A stretch of 64,000 bases of DNA, taken from a virus. Below are positions 1,029 to 37,849 of this stretch, piece by piece (positions within the stretch are counted from its first letter, which is position 1; every line of letters begins with the position of its first letter). Both the position numbers and the translations under genes were made by a program. The stretch covers positions 1 through 64,000 of the IMG/VR virus record IMGVR_UViG_3300016484_000310; one strand, given 5' to 3'. Below the pieces are notes generated by a model. It was not told where the DNA came from and made no database searches. It saw only the letters and a program-made list of their open reading frames with translations.

Positions 1029-1044
1029 GGAAAAGGAACCCCCA

Positions 1045-1293
1045 ATGACGTATTCTCTCGACATTCAGAACCCTGGTGACTGGCTCTATGACACCTCATA
1101 CTGGTGCAAGTGTTCAGTCTGTGGAGAGAAGTTCTTTGGTCCCAAGAGAGCTTCCAAATGCTGGACTCATGAGTCTGAAACCATGAAGGAAGCTTGGGTT
1201 GCCTCCCATCAGGAACCCATGAATGCTCCTATGGAACCTACCCAGATGGAGTTTCCATTTGCTCGGTTTCCATCCTCGGGTCATTCAGACTAA
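1045..1293 (+). CDS. hypothetical small Cys-containing protein
   Basis: SD AAAGGAA upstream of the ATG. 82 aa with a CKCSVCG...C pattern. Confidence 0.5.
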   Translation: MTYSLDIQNPGDWLYDTSYWCKCSVCGEKFFGPKRASKCWTHESETMKEAWVASHQEPMNAPMEPTQMEFPFARFPSSGHSD

Positions 1294-26499: not shown

Positions 26500-26901
26500 A
26501 TGCGTCAAACCATGGACACCTCGAAGATGGTCTTCGTCTTCGGGAGCAATCGCTCTGGCATCCACGGAGCTGGTGCAGCACGTTATGCTGCCCAGTATAG
26601 GGGTGCTGAGATGGGCGTAGGAGAAGGCCCCACAGGAAGCTGCTATGCGCTTCTTACGAAGGGCTACAACATCACCTTCATGTCTCTTGACGAGGTGACT
26701 GACCATGTGCAGAAGTTCCTTTCCTACGCCAAAGAACATCCCGAACTGGACTTCCAAGTGACACAGGTTGGCTGTGGTCTAGGTGGGTTCAGAAAAGAGG
26801 ACATCGCTCCTCTTTTCGAATACGCACCTGACAACTGCTACTTTGATGAGATGTGGAAGTCCCACTTGCCTCCGTCTGCCCAATACTGGGGAACTTTTTG
26901 A
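26500..26901 (+). CDS. conserved-looking hypothetical protein (GSN-x-G-x-HG-x-GAA motif)
   Basis: Contains VFVFGSNRSGIHGAGAARYA...GSCYALLTKG...QVGCGLGGF. Possibly a macro-like or Rossmann-like nucleotide-binding fold. Not verified. Confidence 0.55.
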   Translation: MRQTMDTSKMVFVFGSNRSGIHGAGAARYAAQYRGAEMGVGEGPTGSCYALLTKGYNITFMSLDEVTDHVQKFLSYAKEHPELDFQVTQVGCGLGGFRKEDIAPLFEYAPDNCYFDEMWKSHLPPSAQYWGTF

Positions 26902-27380
26902 TGGAAAACTGGAAAGACTGTGTAGGCTTCGAAGGTTACTATGAGATCAGTGACCAAGGAAATGCCAGACGTGTTGGGAAGACAAAGCCTCTGGCTCAAG
27001 TCATCAACAAAGATGGTTATGTCTGTTTTGTCTTTTCAGTGAATGCCATCAAAACCAATGTGTTAGCTCATCGGCTGGTAGCCATGGCTTTCATTGGACC
27101 TGTTCCTCTGGGTCTCATTGTGCTTCACAATGATGGGATCAAGACAAACAATACACCATTGAACTTGAGATATGGAAGCAATGCTGACAACTCTCAAGAT
27201 ATGGTGGATCATGGAAACCAAACCAAAGGAGAAGCATCGCACCTCTCCAAGCTAACTGAACAACAGATACGGGAAATCCGATCTTCCACCCTATCCACAG
27301 TTCAGCTCGGGAAGATGTATGGTGTCTCCAAAGGAAACATTTCCATGATCAAAAACTTCGTCACATGGAAACATGTCTGA
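26901..27380 (+). CDS. free-standing NUMOD4/HNH homing endonuclease with C-terminal HTH
   Basis: MENWKDCVGFEGYYEISDQGN (NUMOD4-like). VLHNDGIKTNNTPLNLRYGSNADN (HNH). TVQLGKMYGVSKGNISMI (HTH). TGATG overlap. Immediately upstream of the RNR gene. Confidence 0.75.
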   Translation: MENWKDCVGFEGYYEISDQGNARRVGKTKPLAQVINKDGYVCFVFSVNAIKTNVLAHRLVAMAFIGPVPLGLIVLHNDGIKTNNTPLNLRYGSNADNSQDMVDHGNQTKGEASHLSKLTEQQIREIRSSTLSTVQLGKMYGVSKGNISMIKNFVTWKHV

Positions 27381-27428: not shown

Positions 27429-27478
27429 GAAGCCCCTGCTGGTTTTCCCGACCCAAACCAGTGGGGGCTTCTGTTTTT
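27429..27478 (+). terminator. rho-independent terminator
   Basis: GAAGCCCC (27429-27436) pairs with GGGGCTTC (27464-27471). Inner stem CTGGTTT/AAACCAG. Followed by TGTTTTT. Confidence 0.75.
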
Positions 27479-27499
27479 CCAACTGAAGAAAGGGACATC

Positions 27500-29824
27500 A
27501 TGTCTTCAACAAACCCCTTCTCCCAACCGATCTCTGAACAGATCTGGAGGGAAAAGTATCGTCTGATCACTCAACGAGAAGATGTGCCAGATGATGAAAC
27601 GGTCCAAGATACTTGGATGCGTATCGCCAAAGCCTGTGCAAACTCTCAGCCTGAGCTGTATGGCCATGATCACACCATGGACCTTCCTGACACTGTGATC
27701 GCTTCCCGAACTCGTGAGTTCTACTCGGCTCTTGAAAACTTCAAGTTCCTTCCTGCTGGTCGGATCACTGCTGGAGCTGGTTCAGGTCGGAATGTGACCC
27801 TGTTCAACTGCTATGTCATGGGCACCATTCCTGACTCCATGGCAGGTATCTTTGACATGCTCAAGGAAGCTGCTCTGACCATGCAACAAGGTGGTGGAAT
27901 CGGCTACGACTTCAGCACTCTTCGTCCCAAAGGGGCACCTGTTAAAGGTGTGGATGCTGACGCTTCTGGTCCTTTGACGTTCATGGATGTCTGGGACGCA
28001 ATGTGTCGGACAGTCATGAGTGCTGGTTCTCGTCGTGGAGCCATGATGGCAACCATGAGATGTGACCACCCTGACATCAAAGACTTCATCACGGCCAAGA
28101 GAGATCCTCTGCGTCTTCGTATGTTCAACCTGAGTGTGCTGGTCACAGACGCATTCATGAATGCCGTGAAGAATGACGCTGACTGGAACCTTCACTTCAC
28201 CAATCGTCATGGTGAACGTCGGGTTTACAAGACAGTGAGAGCCAGAGATCTTTGGGAAAAGATCATGGACAACACTTACAACTTTGCTGAACCGGGTGTG
28301 ATCTTCATCGACCGGATCAATGCAATGAACAACCTGTGGTATGCTGAGACTATTGCAGCCACAAATCCTTGTGGTGAGCAACCTCTGCCTCCTTACGGAG
28401 CTTGTCTCCTTGGTTCAGTGAACCTGACCAAAGTGGTGATCAATGCTTTCACCAAAGATGCCTACATCGACTGGGATCTTTTGGAGAAAGTCACCAAGCA
28501 GGCTGTGGAAATCCTTGATGCAGTCATCGACATTTCCCTGTTCCCCATTCCCCAGCAACTGGCTGAAGCCAAGGCCAAACGTCGTATGGGAATTGGGATC
28601 ACTGGTCTGGCTGATGCTCTGCTTATGATGGGTCTGACCTATGGTTCAGACGAGGCTGCAAGCCTTCTGGACACCATCATGATGACCATGACTTGTGCTG
28701 CCTACAGACAGTCTATCGAGCTTGCCAAGCTCTATGGACCCTGCCCTGTGACCATGACTCTGGAACAACGTCAAAAGTATGTGGCTGGTCGTTTCATCTC
28801 AAGTCTGCCTGAAGACATCCAAGATGGTATCATCCAGCATGGGATCAGAAACAGCCACCTGATGTCAATTGCTCCCACAGGGACCATCAGCCTCTATGCT
28901 GGCAACATCTCCAGTGGTATCGAGCCTATCTTCGCTCCTGCTTACACTCGGAAGGTTTTGAACCCTGATGGAACCAAGAGACAGGAGAAGGTCGAAGACT
29001 ACGCTGTTCGACTCTATCGTGAGCTGATCAACTTCGATGATGATGCACCCATCCCTTGTCTGATGACAGCTCAGGATCTTCCTGCTTCTGCTCACCTGAA
29101 GATGCAGGCAACAGCTCAGAAATGGGTGGACAGCTCTATCAGCAAGACCATCAACCTGCCTGAAGAGATCTCCTTTGAAGACTTCAAAGAAGTCTACATG
29201 ATGGCCTATGAGTCTGGCTGCAAAGGCTGCACCACCTATCGGCCCAATCCTGTCACTGGTTCCATTCTCGCTGTCGAAGAGAAACCAAAGGAAGAACCAG
29301 AGACCAAGCCTGAACCTCAAGTTCTTGCTGGTCGTCCTGAAGCTCTGCAAGGGTCAACCTACAAGATCAAGACTGGTGGATCTGAACATGCGATGTATGT
29401 CTCTATGACCTACATCGAAGAGAATGGGCAGAAGCGCCCTTATGAAGTCTTCATGAACTCCAAGAACATGGAACACTTCGCATGGACTGTGGCTCTGACT
29501 CGTATGATCTCAGCCATCTTCAGGCGGGGTGGTGACGTTTCCTTCGTGGTCGAAGAGCTGAAAGCAGTCTTTGATCCCAGAGGTGGAAGCTGGACCAAGG
29601 GGCGGTATGTCCCCTCTGATGCTGCTGCCATTGGAGGTGTCATCGAGGAATTCATGAAGGAAATCAACTACATCCCCAACGATGTGAAGGTTGCTCCTGA
29701 AGGGAAGATCCCCGAAGTCTCTGTTCAGAAAGTTGAGCTTTGCCCAAAGTGCCACAGCTCCAACATGAAGAACGAGTCTGGATGCCTTGCCTGTCTGGAT
29801 TGTGGCCACTCCAAGTGTGGCTGA
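27500..29824 (+). CDS. nrdJ: class II (B12-dependent) ribonucleotide reductase
   Basis: SD GAAAGGGA before ATG 27500. Active-site segment NPCGEQPLPPYGACLLGSVNL. C-terminal zinc ribbon CPKC...CLACLDCGHSKCG. Confidence 0.85.
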   Translation: MSSTNPFSQPISEQIWREKYRLITQREDVPDDETVQDTWMRIAKACANSQPELYGHDHTMDLPDTVIASRTREFYSALENFKFLPAGRITAGAGSGRNVTLFNCYVMGTIPDSMAGIFDMLKEAALTMQQGGGIGYDFSTLRPKGAPVKGVDADASGPLTFMDVWDAMCRTVMSAGSRRGAMMATMRCDHPDIKDFITAKRDPLRLRMFNLSVLVTDAFMNAVKNDADWNLHFTNRHGERRVYKTVRARDLWEKIMDNTYNFAEPGVIFIDRINAMNNLWYAETIAATNPCGEQPLPPYGACLLGSVNLTKVVINAFTKDAYIDWDLLEKVTKQAVEILDAVIDISLFPIPQQLAEAKAKRRMGIGITGLADALLMMGLTYGSDEAASLLDTIMMTMTCAAYRQSIELAKLYGPCPVTMTLEQRQKYVAGRFISSLPEDIQDGIIQHGIRNSHLMSIAPTGTISLYAGNISSGIEPIFAPAYTRKVLNPDGTKRQEKVEDYAVRLYRELINFDDDAPIPCLMTAQDLPASAHLKMQATAQKWVDSSISKTINLPEEISFEDFKEVYMMAYESGCKGCTTYRPNPVTGSILAVEEKPKEEPETKPEPQVLAGRPEALQGSTYKIKTGGSEHAMYVSMTYIEENGQKRPYEVFMNSKNMEHFAWTVALTRMISAIFRRGGDVSFVVEELKAVFDPRGGSWTKGRYVPSDAAAIGGVIEEFMKEINYIPNDVKVAPEGKIPEVSVQKVELCPKCHSSNMKNESGCLACLDCGHSKCG

Positions 29825-29880: not shown

Positions 29881-31155
29881 ATGGGCTTGAACAAGGGCCA
29901 ACAGGCTGGATTCCTTGATGTAATCAAGTTCATCAATGATCCAACACAGAAATATGCACACGTTTCAGGCGGTGCAGGAACAGGCAAGACCTACTTCATC
30001 AGCCAGATCGCTGAAAACATCCTGAAGCACAAAGCGCCTCAAGTGCCTCTCCATTCAGTGGCAATTACCGCAACCACCAACAAAGCTGCTGCGGTTATTT
30101 CTGATGCCATGCCTCAAAGGGCTGGAGAGATTGGCACCATCTTCTCCTTCATGAACCTCCGAGTTCACGAGAATTTCGCCACTGGTGAGACATCCATTGT
30201 CCCTACTCCCAATTGGAAAGTCCACTCTGGTTACTTCGTCATTATCGACGAATGCTCAATGGTGACAAAGGATCTGTTCAAATACCTTGAAAAAGGTTTG
30301 GACAATACCTGCAAGGTTCTCTTTGTGGGTGACAAGAACCAATTGGCTCCTGTGAAGGAAACCATTTCCCCCATCTACACTCAGAACTTCCAGATCAGTT
30401 ATCTGACTCAGCCTGTTCGGAACGCAAATCAGCCTGCTCTCATGGCTCTTTGCGAACAAGCCAAACAGACAGTTCTGACTGGTGAGTTCTTTCCAATCAA
30501 GGAAGTCCCCGGAGTCATCGACTTTGTTGATGGCACCACTGTTCAGGGAATCCTTGAGAGGGAATTCCTGAAAGAAGATCCCGGCAAGAGAGTCATTTGC
30601 TACACCAACAAGAGGGTGCTGCAATACAATGACTACATTCGTCAGATTCGTGGATACTCCAAATCCTACGAAGTCGGTGAGATTCTCTCCAACAACAGCT
30701 CTGCTGAATTGCTGGGGAAAGAACGTCTCTACACTGACCAAGTGGTTCAAGTGAAAGCCATCGTCTCTGAACAGGATGACCCCCACATCGTTCCGGGGAA
30801 TCATGTTCCTACTGTCACACTTCAGGTCGAAGATGTGATGAGCCATGTCCTCTATGAGGTCACTGTGTTCAAGCATTACCAAGACCGTGATGCTGCCATG
30901 AAGTATTACAGCTCCCGGAAGCAGTGGGACAAATACTTCAAGGTCAAGAACAACTTCCCGGATCTCCGTTCAGTGTCTGCATCCACAGCCCACAAAGCTC
31001 AGGGTTCAACATATGATTCTGTGATTGTGGATCTGTCAGACATCGGAACTTGCACCAATCTCGATCAGACAGCTCGTATGCTTTATGTCGCTCTGAGCCG
31101 ACCCAGAAGCAGGCTGTTCATTCGGGGCAAGCTTCCTGATCGGTATTTCCAATGA
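29881..31155 (+). CDS. SF1 (RecD/Dda-like) DNA helicase
   Basis: Walker A SGGAGTGKTY. Also VIIDECSMV, VGDKNQLAPV, TAHKAQGSTYDSVIVD and YVALSRPRSRL. Confidence 0.8.
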   Translation: MGLNKGQQAGFLDVIKFINDPTQKYAHVSGGAGTGKTYFISQIAENILKHKAPQVPLHSVAITATTNKAAAVISDAMPQRAGEIGTIFSFMNLRVHENFATGETSIVPTPNWKVHSGYFVIIDECSMVTKDLFKYLEKGLDNTCKVLFVGDKNQLAPVKETISPIYTQNFQISYLTQPVRNANQPALMALCEQAKQTVLTGEFFPIKEVPGVIDFVDGTTVQGILEREFLKEDPGKRVICYTNKRVLQYNDYIRQIRGYSKSYEVGEILSNNSSAELLGKERLYTDQVVQVKAIVSEQDDPHIVPGNHVPTVTLQVEDVMSHVLYEVTVFKHYQDRDAAMKYYSSRKQWDKYFKVKNNFPDLRSVSASTAHKAQGSTYDSVIVDLSDIGTCTNLDQTARMLYVALSRPRSRLFIRGKLPDRYFQ

Positions 31156-31164
31156 GGAGAAGCC

Positions 31165-33216
31165 ATGAAATACGAGATTATTGGGAAAGGATCTTCCCCG
31201 AACATCGCCATTCTATGTCCCCGGATTCAACCCGAGGAAGTAGAGAAGCACTACGGGGATCTTCTCCAACTTGGGTCATCACTGATGGTCTGCAACCTCT
31301 ATCAGGATCGAACCAAGAAGAAGACGAGCAACAATCAGATCAAGGAATACCTGAATGATCTGATGCCTCATCTGATTTCTCGTGGAATCAACTTCCTGAT
31401 CGTGACTCACCCTGAATACTTCAAGGTTCTGTCTCGACAATCGAAAACAGATGCCACCATTGGTGACATCTATCCCTCCATATTCCATGGAGTGGATGTG
31501 ACCTACTTCCCGAACTATGGTCGTGTCTTCTATGACCCAGAAAAAACCAAAGCCAAAATCGACATTGGAGTGTCGTCGGTTATTCGCTGGATGAAAGGAG
31601 ACAAGACTCCCATTGGACAGTCCATCATCAAATTCGAAGCCTATCCAATGACTGATCAAGAGATTCTTGATTGGCTGGACAAGCTCTATGAAATGGATGT
31701 GGATCTGACCTGTGACATCGAAGGCTTCAGCCTGAAGCATTACGATGCTGGAATTGGGACCATCACTTTCTGCTGGACTGAAAATGAAGGCATAGCTTTC
31801 CCAGTGGATTATGTGACTGATCCTTCCACTGGTTTGGGAATGCAGGTCAAGAACCTGAGAATCAGGAGAGCCTTGAAGAAGTTTTTCCAGGTTTTCCGCA
31901 GGAAGATGACTTATCACAACATCTGCTATGACGCATATGTTCTGATCTACCAACTCTTCATGGACCACATTTTGGACCAAGAAGGTATGCTGGAAGGTCT
32001 CGAAGTGATCCTGAGAAATTGGGATTGCTCTCAGATCATCACCTATTTGGCAACCAATTCCTGCTCAGGGAATGAGCTGGGTCTCAAAACTCAAGCTCAA
32101 GAGTTTGCAGGAAACTATGCTCAGGAAGAGATCCACGACATCACCAAGATTCCTCTCAAGGATCTCCTGAAATATAACCTGACAGACGGTCTTGCCACTT
32201 GGCATGTCTACAAGAAGAATCTGCCAATCATGATTGCTGACGATCAGATGGGTGTTTATTATCAGATCTTCAGACCCGCTGTAGTTGACATCATTCAGAT
32301 GCAGCTCACGGGTATGCCCATCAACATGAAGAAAGTGGTTCGTCTGAATAGACAGCTCCAGCAGGAAGCTGAGAACCACATTCGGCTGATGAACAACCTT
32401 GGAATCGTGAAGAGCTTCGTTGACCAAATGCTTGATGAGCATGTGGCCAAGAAGAACTCCGAATACAAGAAGAAGGTCATCACCAAGGCAGATGTGAAAC
32501 CGGGAACGATCACGTTCAATCCCGGTTCTCCCAAGCAGCTTCAAGAGTTTCTATACTCTCAGGACTTCCTTGGTTTGCCTGTTCTGGATTACACAGACAC
32601 CAAGCTTCCGGCTACAGGTGCTGACACACTGGAAAAGCTTCTCAAGCATACCAGTGATCCAGAGGTGATCCTCTTCTTGAACATCCTGATCGAATACAAA
32701 GCTTCTGCGATCATCCTCTCTACGTTCCTGCCAGCCTTTCTACAGGCCAAGGAGGGTAACGATGGTTGGCACTACCTGTTCGGAAACTTCAGGCTTGGTG
32801 GGACAGCCTCTGGCCGTCTGTCATCGAACAATCCGAACATGCAGAACATCCCTGCTTCTGGCTCTACCAAAGCCAAAGCAAGACTTGCCAAACTCATCAA
32901 GGAATGCTTTGAAGCTCCACCGGGATGGCTCTTCTGTGGTTTGGATTTTGACTCTCTTGAAGACAAGATCTCGGCTGTTACAACCAGAGATCCTGAGAAG
33001 ATCAAGGTCTACACAGATGGGTATGACGGCCACTGCCTCAGAGCCTTTGCTTACTTCGGTGAGCACATGCCTGACATCCAGACTTGTCCTCCGACAGCCA
33101 CTGCCTACAAAGCAAAGATCGGGGATGAGACCATCTACTTCCACTCGGAAGAGACGGTAGAATACCTCGGACAAACCATGTTGGGATCCGAGCTTTTCAA
33201 ACTCCTGAACAAATGA
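31165..33216 (+). CDS. family-A DNA polymerase, N-terminal piece (3'-5' exonuclease plus pol motif A)
   Basis: Exo I LTCDIEGF. Pol motif A GLDFDSLEDK (about 32944-32967). The stop at 33214-33216 comes before any motif B. Confidence 0.8.
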   Translation: MKYEIIGKGSSPNIAILCPRIQPEEVEKHYGDLLQLGSSLMVCNLYQDRTKKKTSNNQIKEYLNDLMPHLISRGINFLIVTHPEYFKVLSRQSKTDATIGDIYPSIFHGVDVTYFPNYGRVFYDPEKTKAKIDIGVSSVIRWMKGDKTPIGQSIIKFEAYPMTDQEILDWLDKLYEMDVDLTCDIEGFSLKHYDAGIGTITFCWTENEGIAFPVDYVTDPSTGLGMQVKNLRIRRALKKFFQVFRRKMTYHNICYDAYVLIYQLFMDHILDQEGMLEGLEVILRNWDCSQIITYLATNSCSGNELGLKTQAQEFAGNYAQEEIHDITKIPLKDLLKYNLTDGLATWHVYKKNLPIMIADDQMGVYYQIFRPAVVDIIQMQLTGMPINMKKVVRLNRQLQQEAENHIRLMNNLGIVKSFVDQMLDEHVAKKNSEYKKKVITKADVKPGTITFNPGSPKQLQEFLYSQDFLGLPVLDYTDTKLPATGADTLEKLLKHTSDPEVILFLNILIEYKASAIILSTFLPAFLQAKEGNDGWHYLFGNFRLGGTASGRLSSNNPNMQNIPASGSTKAKARLAKLIKECFEAPPGWLFCGLDFDSLEDKISAVTTRDPEKIKVYTDGYDGHCLRAFAYFGEHMPDIQTCPPTATAYKAKIGDETIYFHSEETVEYLGQTMLGSELFKLLNK

Positions 33217-33223
33217 GGGATCC

Positions 33224-33730
33224 ATGAAAGATCTGAAGCAATACGTCGGTTCCAAGCTGATCACAGCCAAGCCGATGAATCGGGCTGACTACAATGCCCT
33301 GAGAGGCTGGGAGCTGCCCGCTGACGAGGATGGCACTGATGAGGGCTATCTGGTCCAGTATGAACCCAGTGAGGCTTCTCCGCCCAATCTGGAGGGCTTT
33401 CCGGGCTATGTGAGCTGGTCTCCCAAGGCTGTCTTCGAAGAAGCCTATTTCGAGATCAAGGCTGGACTTCCGTTCAGTTTGGTTCTGGATCAAGTCAAGA
33501 ACCATGGTGCTCGTGCTGCTCGCAAGGGCTGGAATGGGAAGAACATGTTCATCTTCCTCGTTCCGGGTTCTGAGTTCGAGGTCAATCGTGAACCTCTACT
33601 CTCGATCCTCGGTGAGGGAACCAAGGTGAAATACCATGGCCACATCGACATGAAGACTGCTGATGGCATGATCGTGCCTTGGCTGGCTTCTCAGACTGAC
33701 ATTCTTGCTGATGATTGGATCTTTGTCTGA
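33224..33730 (+). CDS. DUF2829 (Tad2-like) domain protein inserted inside the DNA polymerase gene
   Basis: Own SD GAGGGA. The C-terminal half, ARKGWNGKNMFIFLV...MIVPWLASQTDILADDWIFV, matches my recollection of the DUF2829 signature (R-K-G-W-N-G ... P-W ... D-x-L-A-x-D-W). The N-terminal ~80 aa form a separate small domain. Confidence 0.6.
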   Translation: MKDLKQYVGSKLITAKPMNRADYNALRGWELPADEDGTDEGYLVQYEPSEASPPNLEGFPGYVSWSPKAVFEEAYFEIKAGLPFSLVLDQVKNHGARAARKGWNGKNMFIFLVPGSEFEVNREPLLSILGEGTKVKYHGHIDMKTADGMIVPWLASQTDILADDWIFV

Positions 33731-33942
33731 TGTCACAAGAGGGATCAATCCGCAGACTGAAGAACCCGGACATGTATGCTGTCCGAACTGCTGATCCCAA
33801 AGTCACCATGCTGCTCAAGGGGGATTCCCTCCTTGAGTGGCCTGTGGGCAGTGGGAAAGGTGTGAGAGTCTCACGACTCTTCCAGAACCAAGAGAAGGAG
33901 CGTCATGCAAAGAATAGCCCAACCCCTAACGGAGCTGCATGA
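33730..33942 (+). CDS. possible 70-aa ORF coupled to the DUF2829 gene
   Basis: TGATG overlap at 33728-33732. It overlaps the start of the downstream polymerase piece by 38 nt. Weak support. Confidence 0.3.
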   Translation: MSQEGSIRRLKNPDMYAVRTADPKVTMLLKGDSLLEWPVGSGKGVRVSRLFQNQEKERHAKNSPTPNGAA

Positions 33943-34660
33943 AGTTTCCCCATCTGAGCATGATGTCGCCCGTATCAACAGCATCAAGGTGAGCTATCCT
34001 GCTTTCCGTCAGGACTCCAAGTCTCCAACCTTTGCTCTGACTTATCAGGGAACTTACATCACTCTGATGGCCAACTGTGGCTTTGCCAAAGAACTGGCTC
34101 AGACTGTGGAAGCTCGTTACCATGAGCTTTACGTTGTGTCTGACAAATGGGTTCAAGACAGACTCGACCAAGCTTGCAAGGATGGTTATGTCACTCTTGC
34201 TTTTGGTCTGAGGCTCAGAACTCCTCTTCTGAAACAGGTCGTCTTGGGAACCAGTGCTACGCCTTTCGAGGCTGCTGCTGAAGGCAGAACTGCTGGTAAT
34301 GCCCTTGGTCAAAGCTGGTGCATGTTGAACTCTCGTGCTGTCTCTGGCTTTATGAAAAAGGTCAGACAGAGCAAACACAGACTCGACATCAAGCCCTGTT
34401 CTCAGATACACGATGCGTCCTACTATCTCATCCGCGATGACATGGAGACGCTTCTCTACACCAACACTAACCTCTCCAAAGAGGTTAGCTGGCAGGAAGA
34501 CCCCCTGATCCAGAACGAACACATCAAGATGAGTGGCAGCTTGGCGATCTTCTATCCGAACTGGTCCAAGAGCTTCGACATCCCCAATGATGCTGATGAA
34601 GCCAAGGTTAAGTCCTTGATCAAGAAGCATTTGGTAAAACTTGAAGGAGAAACCAAGTGA
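33905..34660 (+). CDS. family-A DNA polymerase, C-terminal piece (motifs B and C)
   Basis: SD AAGGAG 4 nt (CGTC) before ATG 33905. The frame is closed upstream by TGA 33863-33865. Motif B RQDSKSPTFALTYQG (about 34007-34051). Motif C QIHDA (about 34403-34417). Confidence 0.8.
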   Translation: MQRIAQPLTELHEVSPSEHDVARINSIKVSYPAFRQDSKSPTFALTYQGTYITLMANCGFAKELAQTVEARYHELYVVSDKWVQDRLDQACKDGYVTLAFGLRLRTPLLKQVVLGTSATPFEAAAEGRTAGNALGQSWCMLNSRAVSGFMKKVRQSKHRLDIKPCSQIHDASYYLIRDDMETLLYTNTNLSKEVSWQEDPLIQNEHIKMSGSLAIFYPNWSKSFDIPNDADEAKVKSLIKKHLVKLEGETK

Positions 34661-35658
34661 AGATTACCAACCAGATGGGCATTGATCTGCCCTTGGCTGT
34701 CTGGCTCTTGCAAGAGGGCTACAAGTCTGGAGCTGAGAATGCTCCTCCCGGTGAGCTGCTTTCAGTCACCACTCTGATGAAACCGACTCGTCAGCTCATC
34801 CTGCAACGCAAGGTGGACTTCACCAAGGAAACCATGGATGTCAGCGAGATGGTCTCATCTCGTATGGGTCACAGCCTTCATGATGCCATTGAACGGGCAT
34901 GGACTGAAGGTGACTGGCAAGGAGCCATGAAGAAGCTCCACTATCCTCAGTCGATCATCGACAGGATCAGGATCAATCCTCCCATGGACAAGCCTATGGA
35001 AGATAGGATCATTCCTATCTATCTGGAGCAACGTGGGTTCAAGCCTTTCGAAGACATCATTCTGACTGGTCAGCTCGATTTTCTGATTGGCTCGTCTTAT
35101 CGGGACTTCAAATCGACTTCGACCTATTCTTGGACTTCTGGTTCCAAGGATGAAGACTATGCTCTTCAAGGTTCTCTCTACCGTTTCATCTTCCCTGAGC
35201 TGATCAAGGATGATGTGATGAGGATCGAGTTCATCTTTACTGACTGGGCTTCTTACAGAGCCAAGACAGACAAGAACTATCCTCAAGCTCGTGTGGCTCA
35301 CAAAGAGTTCAAACTCATGAGCCTGAAAGAAACTGAGATCTGGCTGTCTTCCAAGCTGGCTGAGATCCGCAAGAATGCCAAACTGCCTCAGTCGAAGATG
35401 ATTGAATGCACAGACAAACAGCTCTGGAGAGCTGATGATGTGTTCAAGTATTACTCGAACCCTGAGACAGCCAAGTCTGGTGGTCGTTGCACCAAACACT
35501 TTGACAAGGAAAGCGAAGCCGTTCTCTATCAACAAGAGAAGGGCAAAGGTGTGGTGATCAAGGAAGCCGGAGAACCCAAAGCCTGCATGTATTGCAACGC
35601 ATTCCAAGTCTGTGAGCAGCGTAAGCGATACTTCAACGACGACGGTTCTTCTCGATAA
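34657..35658 (+). CDS. putative PD-(D/E)XK-type exonuclease with C-terminal Cys cluster
   Basis: SD GAAGGAGA before GTG 34657. GQLDFLIG...RDFKST resembles a D...(D/E)xK core. Also contains CMYCNAFQVC. Confidence 0.5.
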   Translation: MKITNQMGIDLPLAVWLLQEGYKSGAENAPPGELLSVTTLMKPTRQLILQRKVDFTKETMDVSEMVSSRMGHSLHDAIERAWTEGDWQGAMKKLHYPQSIIDRIRINPPMDKPMEDRIIPIYLEQRGFKPFEDIILTGQLDFLIGSSYRDFKSTSTYSWTSGSKDEDYALQGSLYRFIFPELIKDDVMRIEFIFTDWASYRAKTDKNYPQARVAHKEFKLMSLKETEIWLSSKLAEIRKNAKLPQSKMIECTDKQLWRADDVFKYYSNPETAKSGGRCTKHFDKESEAVLYQQEKGKGVVIKEAGEPKACMYCNAFQVCEQRKRYFNDDGSSR

Positions 35659-35683
35659 ACCATCTGAACAAGGAACCACTCCC

Positions 35684-37849
35684 ATGACTTCCAGAATTTT
35701 TGATCTGGAAGTGCTGAAAAGCACTCCCCATCACATTGCCATGAGTGAGATCGTTGATCTCCTCTGCCATCGAACAGGCAACGTCAACCGTGACTTCTTT
35801 CAGGCTGAAGTTGCCTACTTCCTTGGACTGATCCCCAGTGCAATGCGAGTGACTATCGAGAGTGCTGAACGGGGCAAGATCCCGGTCAACATCTATTCGA
35901 TTGCCTTGGCCACTTCTGGCTTTGGCAAGGGTCACTCTGTCTCTCTAATGGAAGACATCATCTCTGACTTCCGGGAAAACTTCGTTCAGAAGGTCTTCCC
36001 CTTCATCGCTGAAAAGTCGATCTACGATCTGGCTACCGAGATCGCTGCTGCGAAATCTGGTGATCAGGCTGCTGAACAAGCTCTGCTGGAAGCCGACTTC
36101 AAGCGTCAGGGACATGCTCCTTTCATCTTTGACTCAGGCACTGGGCCTGCTGTCAAACAGCTTCGCTACAAGCTTCTTCTTGCTCGTGCTGGTTCGATCA
36201 ACTTCCAAATGGATGAGATCGGATCCAACCTCACGGGTCAGACTGAAATCATCAACATGCTTCTTGAGCTGTATGACCTTGGTCGCATCAAGACGAAGCT
36301 TGTTAAGAACACAGCAGACAATGAGCGGGGTATCGACCTTCATGGTTCAACTCCTGCCAACATGCTGATGTTTGGCACCACTTCCAAGCTCTTCGACGGA
36401 GCCAAGACTGAGGAAGACTTCTACAGCTTCCTTGAGATTGGCTACGCTCGTCGGTGTTTCTTCGGTCTGGGAAAGCCTGAGATCTACAACGCTTCTGTCA
36501 ATCCAGAAGATGTCTACAATGGTCTCGTCTCCAAGAACCGTTCTCAGAACCTTGTGAAGTGGAAAGGCATCCTCAAGAACTTCGCTGATCCAGCTCACTA
36601 TGGGACCAAGCTTCAGGTTCCTCGTGAAGTTGGTGTGAAGCTGGTTGCCTATCGTCTTCTGTGTGAAAGCCTTGCCAATGGTATGGCTGAGCATGAAGTC
36701 ATTCGCAAAGCTGAGATGAGCCATCGCTACTTCAAGGCTCTGAAGCTGGCTGGTGTCTATGCCTATCTCGATGGCTCCAAGGACATCACTATGGCCAACC
36801 TGATGCAGGGCATCAAAGTGGCTGAAGAGTCAGGTGTGAGCTTCCAGCAGCTCCTGAAGCGTGAGCGTAACTTCGTCCGTCTGGCCAAGTATATCGCTGC
36901 TTCTCCGGGTGAACTCACCCATGCTGATCTGGTCGAAGATCTTCCCTATTACCCGACTTCCACTGGTCCCCGTAAGGAGATCATGGATCTGGCAATGGCA
37001 TGGGGTGTGGGCAATCATGTGGTCATCAAGAAGACAGTGGTCTCTGGAGTTGAATTCTTCTCTGGCTCTACCCTGCAAGAGACAGATCTTCAGAAGATCA
37101 TGTTCAGCTACTCGGACCACTTCGCTCAGAACTATGTCTCTTACCAGAAGCCTTTCGACAAGCTTCCACAGCTTCTGGGAGCCAAAGATCTCCACTGGTG
37201 CAACCATGGCTTTGACAAAGAGCACAGAGCCGAAGAGAATGCTCTGGAAGGCTTCAATCTCCTTGTGGTGGACGTGGATGGCTCAATCTCGTTAAATGCC
37301 GTCCATGAGCTGATGAAGGACTATACGTTCATCACCAGCACCACCAAGAGACACACTGACAAGGCGAACCGTTTCCGGTTGATCATGCCTACCAACTATG
37401 TCCTCAATCTGGACAAGGTTGACTACCGGGAGTTCATGAACAGCTTCCTTTTGTGGCTCCCCTTCGAGTCGGATACCTCTGCAAACCAGAGATCCAAGAA
37501 GTGGATGACCAACGAAGGATCTACGATCAAGCTGCATCGTGGACCCAATCTGGTCAACGTTCTTCCCTTCATTCCGAAGACGAAACAGAATACCGAGTAT
37601 CGCACTTCGATTGTCGATCTGGGTCGTCTGAACCATCTGGAACGCTGGTTCCTGAACAACATGGATGAAGGCAACCGGAACAACAATCTGGCCAAGTTTG
37701 GTCTGATGCTTCTGGATGCTGGGATGAGCTATGACGAGATCACCCACAAGATCTACACCCTGAACGATCAATGCACCTCACCCTTGAAGAAGGATGAGAT
37801 CCAACAGACCGTTCTCAAATCCATCGCTTCGAAGATGTCGAAGAAGTAA
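35684..37849 (+). CDS. putative DNA primase / replication protein
   Basis: ATG 35684 lies after the previous stop. GFGKGHS is P-loop-like. The C-terminal LLVVDVDG...FRLIMPT resembles a primase-polymerase core. The position matches the N4 primase region. Confidence 0.55.
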   Translation: MTSRIFDLEVLKSTPHHIAMSEIVDLLCHRTGNVNRDFFQAEVAYFLGLIPSAMRVTIESAERGKIPVNIYSIALATSGFGKGHSVSLMEDIISDFRENFVQKVFPFIAEKSIYDLATEIAAAKSGDQAAEQALLEADFKRQGHAPFIFDSGTGPAVKQLRYKLLLARAGSINFQMDEIGSNLTGQTEIINMLLELYDLGRIKTKLVKNTADNERGIDLHGSTPANMLMFGTTSKLFDGAKTEEDFYSFLEIGYARRCFFGLGKPEIYNASVNPEDVYNGLVSKNRSQNLVKWKGILKNFADPAHYGTKLQVPREVGVKLVAYRLLCESLANGMAEHEVIRKAEMSHRYFKALKLAGVYAYLDGSKDITMANLMQGIKVAEESGVSFQQLLKRERNFVRLAKYIAASPGELTHADLVEDLPYYPTSTGPRKEIMDLAMAWGVGNHVVIKKTVVSGVEFFSGSTLQETDLQKIMFSYSDHFAQNYVSYQKPFDKLPQLLGAKDLHWCNHGFDKEHRAEENALEGFNLLVVDVDGSISLNAVHELMKDYTFITSTTKRHTDKANRFRLIMPTNYVLNLDKVDYREFMNSFLLWLPFESDTSANQRSKKWMTNEGSTIKLHRGPNLVNVLPFIPKTKQNTEYRTSIVDLGRLNHLERWFLNNMDEGNRNNNLAKFGLMLLDAGMSYDEITHKIYTLNDQCTSPLKKDEIQQTVLKSIASKMSKK

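Follow-up and report, generated by a model that had tools for sequence, protein, structure and literature searches.

How does a phage make its replicative DNA polymerase when the gene is broken in two and other genes lie in the break? The question is raised by the IMG/VR virus record IMGVR_UViG_3300016484_000310, of which positions 1 to 64,000 were analyzed (this whole 64-kb stretch is called the window). The window is N4-like, as judged by its gene order of helicase, DNA polymerase, gp42 and gp43 and by an open reading frame (ORF) of 3597 amino acids (aa) for a virion RNA polymerase. Its family-A DNA polymerase gene is interrupted between motifs A and B by a gap that carries a Tad2-like gene. 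We consider it likely that the sole family-A polymerase is encoded here as two genes, with passenger genes in the gap between them.

A first-pass annotation, made without database searches, had placed an exonuclease motif and motif A in one ORF and motifs B and C in a second, downstream ORF. Both assignments were confirmed. The upstream product, PolN, matched positions 8-200 of the 381 in the Pfam family DNA_pol_A (PF00476) as well as phrog_17 (E = 4e-108), and the downstream product, PolC, matched positions 204-336 of PF00476 as well as phrog_2573 (E = 1e-38). The borders of the break were set by alignment to the intact polymerases of Roseobacter phage RD-1410W1-01 and Agrobacterium phage OLIVR1, which also bore out the interruption between motifs A and B. 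In intact N4-like DNA polymerases, the homologue of the PolN core spans residues 1 to ~650; homology ends at ...YFGEHMPDI (33078) and resumes in PolC at DVARINSI... (33962). The break site is presumably the fingers loop that links the O helix (motif B) to the helix following motif A. Judged by this alignment, PolN and PolC together make up a complete family-A polymerase of the N4-like kind, with the break in a surface loop of its fingers. Motifs A and B are ~124 aa apart in the window, compared with ~63 aa in intact N4-like enzymes; the earlier figure of ~116 aa was close but low. The nearest isolate polymerases, from roseophages and rhizobiophages, share 64% identity with the N piece and about 60-65% with the C piece, and all are encoded by an intact gene. 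A split polymerase was found in none of the isolates of the August 2025 phage collection. The features of the locus are collected in Table 1.

Table 1. Features of the split polymerase locus in the window, and of related loci (L numbers, with positions in the respective locus)
Feature	Position	Strand	Basis or remark
PolN ORF, 683 aa	31165..33216	+	DLTCDIEGF (exonuclease) and CGLDFDSLEDK (motif A)
PolN core: 3'-5' exonuclease domain, thumb, palm motif A, first half of fingers	31165..33078	+	PF00476, phrog_17, alignment
N tail: 45 codons QTCPPTATAYKAKIGDETIYFHSEETVEYLGQTMLGSELFKLLNK and stop	33079..33216	+	no counterpart in intact polymerases
PolC ORF, 251 aa	33905..34660	+	motif B RQDSKSPTFALTYQG and motif C QIHDA
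C head: 19 codons MQRIAQPLTELHEVSPSEH	33905..33961	+	no counterpart in intact polymerases (alignment)
PolC core: second half of fingers (O helix, motif B RQDSKSPTFALTYQG, uninterrupted), palm motif C QIHDA	33962..34660	+	
Shine-Dalgarno AAGGAG, 4 nt 5' of PolC ATG 33905	33895..33900	+	direct sequence reading
Tad2-like gap ORF, 168 aa	33224..33730	+	PF11195, phrog_872, N4 gp49
Shine-Dalgarno-like GAGGG, 4 nt 5' of Tad2-like ATG	33215..33219	+	direct sequence reading
N-terminal domain of gap ORF, aa 1-81, N4 gp49-type	33224..33466	+	phrog_872 and N4 gp49 alignment
Tad2/DUF2829 domain of gap ORF, aa 82-168 and stop, predicted signal-nucleotide sponge	33467..33730	+	PF11195, PDB matches, Foldseek
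70-aa orphan ORF	33730..33942	+	TGATG overlap with Tad2-like stop; last 38 nt overlap PolC start
Dda-like helicase	29881..31155		replication block
gp42-like exonuclease	34657..35658		replication block, after polymerase
gp43-like primase	35612..37849		replication block
Virion RNA polymerase ORF, 3597 aa	40751..51544	-	
Extra 54-55-aa ORF, N piece to Tad2-like gene	L005 3837-4004; L004 3837-4004; L081 373-537; L097 3840-4004		
Motif-B hairpin insert	L008 4738-4777		
Motif-B hairpin insert	L104 3431-3476 (= L105 14-59)		
Motif-B hairpin insert	L106 386-433; L107 637-684		
Motif-B hairpin insert	L114 1155-1199		
Motif-B hairpin insert	L108, within 1040-1110	-	

Relatives were gathered by IMG/VR scans with the cargo protein and with the peptide appended to PolN (N tail), by one metagenome scan, and by contig look-ups for database matches. 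About twenty distinct loci share the N tail and the short peptide that leads PolC (C head), and this layout of tail, gap and head recurs in independent assemblies from IMG/VR, JGI, ENA, NCBI and Logan. A search with PolC returned 1354 proteins with E values up to 1e-20. The best 120 of these were without exception stand-alone proteins (120/120), mostly of 245-255 aa and with 59-91% identity; they came from JGI, ENA, NCBI, Tara and Logan, many of them on contigs of 70-76 kb. Because these 120 matches all stand alone, the split is evidently no singular event but the usual arrangement in a large uncultivated clade. The interruption, and nothing further, could still suggest that the polymerase is a decaying pseudogene or an assembly artefact and that the phage uses another enzyme. 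We regard this as highly improbable: the same architecture is present in many independent assemblies, including at least 13 contigs of ~73 kb; the ratio of nonsynonymous to synonymous substitution rates (dN/dS) of the polymerase core is 0.05-0.12 (0.05-0.11 in PolN and 0.07-0.12 in PolC); and there is no second polymerase copy within the window.

PolC carries its own translational signals, all of them as originally described: a Shine-Dalgarno (SD) sequence, an ATG, and upstream a TGA (33863-33865) that closes the frame. An SD and ATG precede and start PolC in all relatives as well. Nothing follows the Tad2-like gene in L007, L094, L095 and L102, and the PolC ATG lies within its last codons. 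L080 (5139-5190; = L091) has only a 52-nt spacer, in which the Tad2-like gene survives as its first 10 codons (MKQFIGTKTL) and its last ~5 codons (..VPDA*). By these remnants, the spacer is a clean deletion of the cargo in which the split and the start/stop overlap were retained. At its other end, PolC overlaps the gp42-like exonuclease gene by four bases in the window (34657-34660).

The first-pass annotation favored two separately translated fragments and left a self-splicing intron open. A group I intron or another RNA-level element with an ORF would leave a mature mRNA for one polymerase. Family-A polymerase genes of SPO1-like and T7-like phages are known to contain group I introns, and the stretch 33079-33223 folds slightly better than shuffled sequences (z = -2.0). 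However, an Rfam scan of 32800-34200 with E values up to 10 found no intron and only chance matches to small nucleolar RNAs, and what would be the 5' and 3' parts of the intron are, respectively, the coding N tail, which is under selection, and the coding 70-aa ORF. No non-coding DNA remains between the Tad2 stop and the PolC ATG in the four relatives named above, and L080 has 52 nt in total. Two hairpins that had been flagged as possible intron parts both lie inside the coding 70-aa ORF; the one at 33767-33785 is marginal (folding free energy dG -8.2, z = -2.25), and the one near 33861 is at chance level (z = -0.28). A promoter and terminator scan of the gap gave no signal exceeding shuffles. 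Given the lack of an Rfam intron, the start/stop overlaps and the 52-nt spacer of L080, separate translation of the two fragments is the best reading, and splicing is very unlikely.

The N tail and C head had been noticed as ~44 and ~20 aa without counterpart, which alignment sets at 45 and 19 residues. The accompanying suggestion that the tail might be read-through sequence did not survive, since its dN/dS of 0.10-0.34 indicates purifying selection; it is kept at the protein level in every split relative, the distant L101 included. The tail had no Pfam match and no internal duplication, a PDB profile search with it was empty, and BLASTP against the intact polymerase gave an alignment restricted to the shared AFAYFGEHMPDI. 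The head is loosely conserved and under weak selection, with only its M-L/Q-K/R-I start and ...S-E-H end kept. We take the tail as a candidate docking peptide, which probably aids the docking of PolN and PolC. Extensions that lie exactly at the junction, with a Cys near the start of the tail (QTCPP), might also be read as a split intein in two halves, ligating PolN to PolC. This is barely credible: the extensions total 64 aa, whereas a HINT domain has ~130 aa; there is no intein match in Pfam; the Cys is replaced by Leu in half of the clade (ELLPE in L007, L080 and L094); and the end of the head lacks His-Asn followed by Cys, Ser or Thr.

We then turned to the gene that follows PolN. As proposed, the 168-aa ORF has an SD of its own, GAGGG, and belongs to DUF2829/Tad2. 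Its residues 84-168 matched PF11195 (Tad2-like) with an E value of 8.6e-22 and 77.9 bits (cut-off 25), and a phmmer search of PDB sequences retrieved five solved Tad2 proteins (E = 1e-14 to 6e-11), among them ModTad2, HgmTad2/AcrIIA7, SPO1 Gp34.65 and SptTad2. An AlphaFold2 (AF2) model built from 36 homologues had a mean predicted local distance difference test score (pLDDT) of 92.5 and showed the N-terminal helix, antiparallel sheet and short C-terminal helix that define the Tad2 fold. Foldseek matched the C domain of this model to 9eib, 8v3e, 8kbi and 8sme with a probability of 1.0 and target-normalised template modeling (TM) scores of 0.67-0.89; the top targets, 9eib and 8v3e, had scores of 0.82-0.89, and ModTad2 had 0.82. 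On these sequence and model comparisons, we are confident that the product is a Tad2/DUF2829-domain protein. Over residues 2-168 it matched phrog_872 (E = 1.9e-52), and N4 gp49 is homologous to it over its full length, with 44% identity over residues 4-168. Its N-terminal domain is modeled confidently by AF2, yet has no fold match in PDB or BFVD beyond other Tad2-like proteins. An identical Tad2-like protein is on record from a contig of 73,454 nt.

The pocket of HgmTad2 for glycocyclic ADP-ribose (gcADPR) consists of W21 N22 G23 and M76 A78 T82 V84 W87 L88 S90 T92 D93 (PMC10680739). In a HMMER alignment, the gap ORF is identical to HgmTad2 at 10 of these 12 residues (KGWNGK; DMK..IV.PWLASQTD), the exceptions being A78, replaced by T, and T82, replaced by M; the WNG and WLASQTD motifs are retained. 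The cyclic-dinucleotide pocket of HgmTad2 is built by the beta2-beta5 insertion, which is short in the gap ORF, and this second pocket is probably absent. Ligands vary among Tad2 homologues and include 3' cyclic ADPR (3'cADPR), His-ADPR, cUMP, cGG and N7-cADPR (PMC12393519). From sequence and model, the gap protein probably sponges Thoeris-type signals derived from ADPR (3'cADPR/gcADPR or His-ADPR). Because the ligands of homologues differ, we infer sponge activity on good grounds, with the ligand not fixed by sequence.

Among the relatives, the Tad2-like gene lies directly 3' of the N piece in 16 of the 19 distinct split loci, with three lacking it. The 70-aa ORF comes after it in the window, L005, L081 and L097, and an HNH endonuclease gene in L004 and L008. 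L005, L004, L081 and L097 also have an extra ORF of 54-55 aa in front of the Tad2-like gene; this ORF is missing in the window and has no Pfam match, and its start (..FDEAISLL..G) recalls the first helix of the Tad2 domain. The Tad2 domain is fused to another N-terminal domain (MPKFTKKPVTIEARQW...) in L092 (300-812), and it stands alone, without an N domain, in L090 (1942-2250) and L088. Judged by these arrangements, the Tad2 domain encoded in the gap behaves as a module. Contig L090 continues with a truncated PolC and then unrelated GC-rich sequence, and may be chimeric. The gap of L104 holds the HNH gene only, with no Tad2-like gene. The distant, GC-rich L101 (2409-4000) has an N tail of the same type, and its gap of 1.6 kb contains unrelated ORFs: one of 93 aa, one of 134 aa and a longer one interrupted by a scaffold gap. 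The ORFs scanned gave no Pfam match, and a Tad2-like gene is absent. L006 has an intact polymerase, and its Tad2-like gene lies between helicase and polymerase.

The Tad2-like gene immediately follows PolN in most split loci, is coupled to PolC by start/stop overlap and is under purifying selection (dN/dS 0.09-0.27). These features would also suit a protein that, in place of being a sponge, serves the split polymerase as an accessory or helps it assemble, for instance by bridging PolN and PolC. We consider such a role unlikely. As read from L080, with its remnant, and from L101 and L104, the split persists without the gene, and the Tad2-like cargo is dispensable for the split polymerase. Homologues also occur beside intact polymerases and in other positions (L006; N4 gp49, ~9 kb away), the N domain is swapped in L092 and missing in L090, and the ligand-pocket residues of characterized sponges are retained.

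The possible 70-aa ORF coupled to the Tad2-like gene through TGATG turned out to be a real and conserved gene. Its dN/dS is 0.15-0.29 in L005 and L081, and gene callers also report it in L097. It had no Pfam or PHROG match, and an exhaustive HMMER search of 1.84 billion representatives found two small proteins as its only homologues; matches in giant ankyrin and HMG-box proteins were rejected as compositional noise. The ORF occupies the position of the HNH gene in relatives.

Insertions were also seen at other places around the polymerase. Variable extra ORFs or spacers lie between PolC and the gp42-like exonuclease gene in L008 (5340-5714), L080 (5934-6284) and L094 (6345-7045), and this region may be a second cargo slot. 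Just 5' of motif A, L085 (4156-4808) has an insertion of ~650 nt and L104 (1838-2320) has a 161-aa ORF. A separate lineage, L115 (2473-5598), has polymerase pieces of 524 aa and 365 aa with a 147-aa ORF between them, and many database proteins of ~365-380 aa are pieces of the L115 type. Split polymerases seem common among environmental N4-like phages.

To trace the history of the cassette, we compared it with its flanks. Between the window and L005, the flanks have 94-97% protein identity and synonymous divergence (dS) of 0.40 and 0.62, whereas the tail, the Tad2-like gene and the 70-aa ORF have 71-74% identity and dS of 0.87, 1.27 and 1.22. L097 and L081 have flanks more distant from the window than those of L005, and Tad2 alleles closer to it (84% and 80%). 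Because the divergence of the cassette is incongruent with that of the flanks, the cassette appears to have its own history and to have been exchanged by recombination.

The gap of the window holds no homing endonuclease, as originally stated, but this does not extend to the clade: five relatives (L004, L008, L104, L107 and L114) have an HNH gene with NUMOD4 and HNH_3 in the gap. Each of the five loci with an HNH gene has a broken motif B, and none of the 11 HNH-free loci does; the break is made by a hairpin of 40-48 nt in four and by a single extra base in one (L004). L007 (4467-4610) and L008 (4071-4780) differ by a single replaced block and are >99% identical to either side of it. In L008, the block follows directly on the shared ATGCTTAAA, with which PolC begins in L007 and the HNH gene in L008. 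The block contains the NUMOD4/HNH_3 gene, a re-coded PolC start (the first ~46 codons, with about 75% nucleotide identity and mostly synonymous changes) and, at its end, the 40-nt motif-B insertion. On this comparison, L007 and L008 represent, in natural phages, the states before and after a homing event. The likely target of the gap HNH is the motif-B coding sequence ~140 nt downstream, and the window, with its uninterrupted motif B and endonuclease-free gap, carries the kind of allele that would be expected to be cut. Elsewhere in the window, a free-standing NUMOD4/HNH-like ORF of 175 aa (26853..27380, + strand), 31% identical to the gap HNH of L004, lies immediately 5' of the ribonucleotide reductase (RNR) gene (27461..29824).

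Five insert variants of 40-48 nt (L008, L104 (= L105), L106/L107, L108 and L114) occupy the same site, after the Thr codon of P-T-F-A-L-T (PolC codon 46) and before a second Thr codon, which is followed by Y-Q-G. The second codon of the insert is an in-frame stop in four of the five. Each insert folds as a G/C hairpin (dG of -18 to -32 kcal/mol for the insert alone), with z of about -3 in the two variants tested with flanks against shuffles. The stems show compensatory changes between variants (such as U-A to C-G and C-G to A-U), two variants have a UUCG loop, and a purine/A-rich stretch lies 5' of the second Thr codon. Wherever upstream DNA is visible, the HNH gene lies just 5' of the insert. 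Downstream, YQGTY..L continues in the polymerase frame with no start codon available, and gene callers therefore give truncated products of 197-201 aa. By analogy with known bypassing, ribosomes may bypass the motif-B hairpins, which would make them candidate cassettes of the gene-60 type. In L004 (5165-5171; also L082 and L083), motif B has an extra C (ACC TTT C GCA CTT ACC TAT), so that the rest of the polymerase needs a +1 shift, for which re-pairing from UUU to UUC is possible. This extra base could be a programmed +1 frameshift, a mutation giving immunity at the target site, or an assembly error.

These observations on relatives fit a tentative extension of the two-gene reading, which we consider possible though less than even in probability: the gap would be the slot of a homing unit whose HNH enzyme cuts motif B. 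Repair would then install the HNH gene, the re-coded PolC start and a hairpin that destroys the target, ribosomes would bypass the hairpin, and the Tad2-like gene would be co-converted.

For the window itself, the arrangement of one polymerase in two genes would work as follows. PolN and PolC, each with its own translation start, would reassemble non-covalently into an active enzyme. The gap would act as a promoter-less slot within the replication operon that gathers passenger genes, and the Tad2-like protein would be made together with the replication proteins. In five relatives, a free-standing HNH homing endonuclease occupies this slot; the cassette would be exchanged between phages by recombination, its spread perhaps helped by homing, and the window would represent the endonuclease-free state of the mobile slot. 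Some points temper this account. The mobility of the cassette rests on the relatives and on the incongruence in dS, the gap of the window being free of endonuclease. An AF2 fusion model of residues 384-683 of PolN joined to PolC, made from a block alignment bridged by intact polymerases, was good in the core but had pLDDT below 50 at residues 214-264 and 287-316, which correspond to the tail and head. The homologues of the predicted sponge bind several different ligands, and its best PDB match, ModTad2, is a binder of His-ADPR.

Reassembly has precedents among 'genes in pieces'. The products of the split gp43A/gp43B of Aeromonas phages 25 and 44RR, and of the split NrdA of phage Aeh1 with its mobE insertion, co-purify and are active (PMC2988022). 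The window shares with these systems an essential enzyme, contiguous in relatives, that is encoded as two co-oriented and separately translated ORFs around an inserted cassette, both under selection, with a homing endonuclease in the gap of some genomes only. It differs from them in that the enzyme is of family A, neither family B nor an RNR, and belongs to a Schitoviridae-like phage; that the break falls between motifs A and B, in a loop of the fingers, with a conserved 45-aa tail on the N piece; and that the constant passenger is an anti-defence-type gene instead of an endonuclease. Within 'genes in pieces', the locus is thus distinctive in its family-A polymerase, its conserved appended tail and the Tad2-type gene as its usual passenger. 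Literature searches, whose coverage was incomplete and which are no proof of novelty, did not find a split N4-like polymerase.

The motif-B inserts of L008, L104, L107 and L114 resemble T4 gene 39/mobA/gene 60, where a 50-nt stretch between codons 46 and 47 of gene 60 is bypassed in translation (bioRxiv 10.1101/2022.08.31.505936; PMC2988022). They share with it an HNH gene at the split, a 40-48-nt hairpin at codon 46 (of PolC), a stop that usually comes soon after the start of the insert, matching flanking codons, a UUCG loop and a purine-rich stretch. By contrast with gene 60, the interrupted gene encodes a DNA polymerase and not a topoisomerase, the flanking codons are Thr and not Gly, and the stop is mostly the second codon after the first Thr and not the first. 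The window has neither the endonuclease nor the insert.

As to the passenger, the C-terminal 87 residues of the gap ORF have the fold and family of the Tad2 sponges SPO1 Gp34.65, ModTad2, HgmTad2/AcrIIA7 and SptTad2, and retain the parts through which HgmTad2 touches gcADPR, namely the WNG loop and the W-L-x-S-x-T-D helix. Sponges of this family form homotetramers that capture an immune signal and rescue phage from Thoeris (or CBASS/Pycsar). Unlike those sponges, the gap protein, described here from its sequence and a model, has an extra N-terminal domain of ~80 aa, and its gene lies inside a split polymerase. Its two-domain build is that of gp49 of Escherichia phage N4, a phage of the same overall type. 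However, gp49 lies at 34021-34482 of NC_008720, ~9 kb downstream of an uninterrupted polymerase gene, whereas the homologue of the window lies between the polymerase halves, with no second copy in the window. The first-pass annotation had called both cargo and location unusual; this stands for the place, while the cargo, as a gp49 homologue, is an ordinary accessory gene of N4-like phages.

Taken together, these findings describe a second class of split polymerase, in which a family-A replicative enzyme can evidently function as two polypeptides divided at the fingers loop; a large and varied set of N4-like phages from the environment stably keeps the split. Such split genes will be handled wrongly by annotation pipelines and in polymerase phylogenies of N4-like viruses. 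The relatives offer a before/after pair for homing and a candidate for new programmed ribosome bypassing. Efficient long-gap bypassing in phages so far rests on the T4 gene 60 family (bioRxiv 10.1101/2022.08.31.505936); if the homing-unit scheme is true, the motif-B inserts would be a second natural family of gene-60-type translational bypassing, and immune-evasion alleles would be shuffled between phages by way of an essential gene that cannot be lost. A Tad2-type gene in a recombining slot of an essential operon suggests a route by which these phages may keep and exchange counter-defence alleles.

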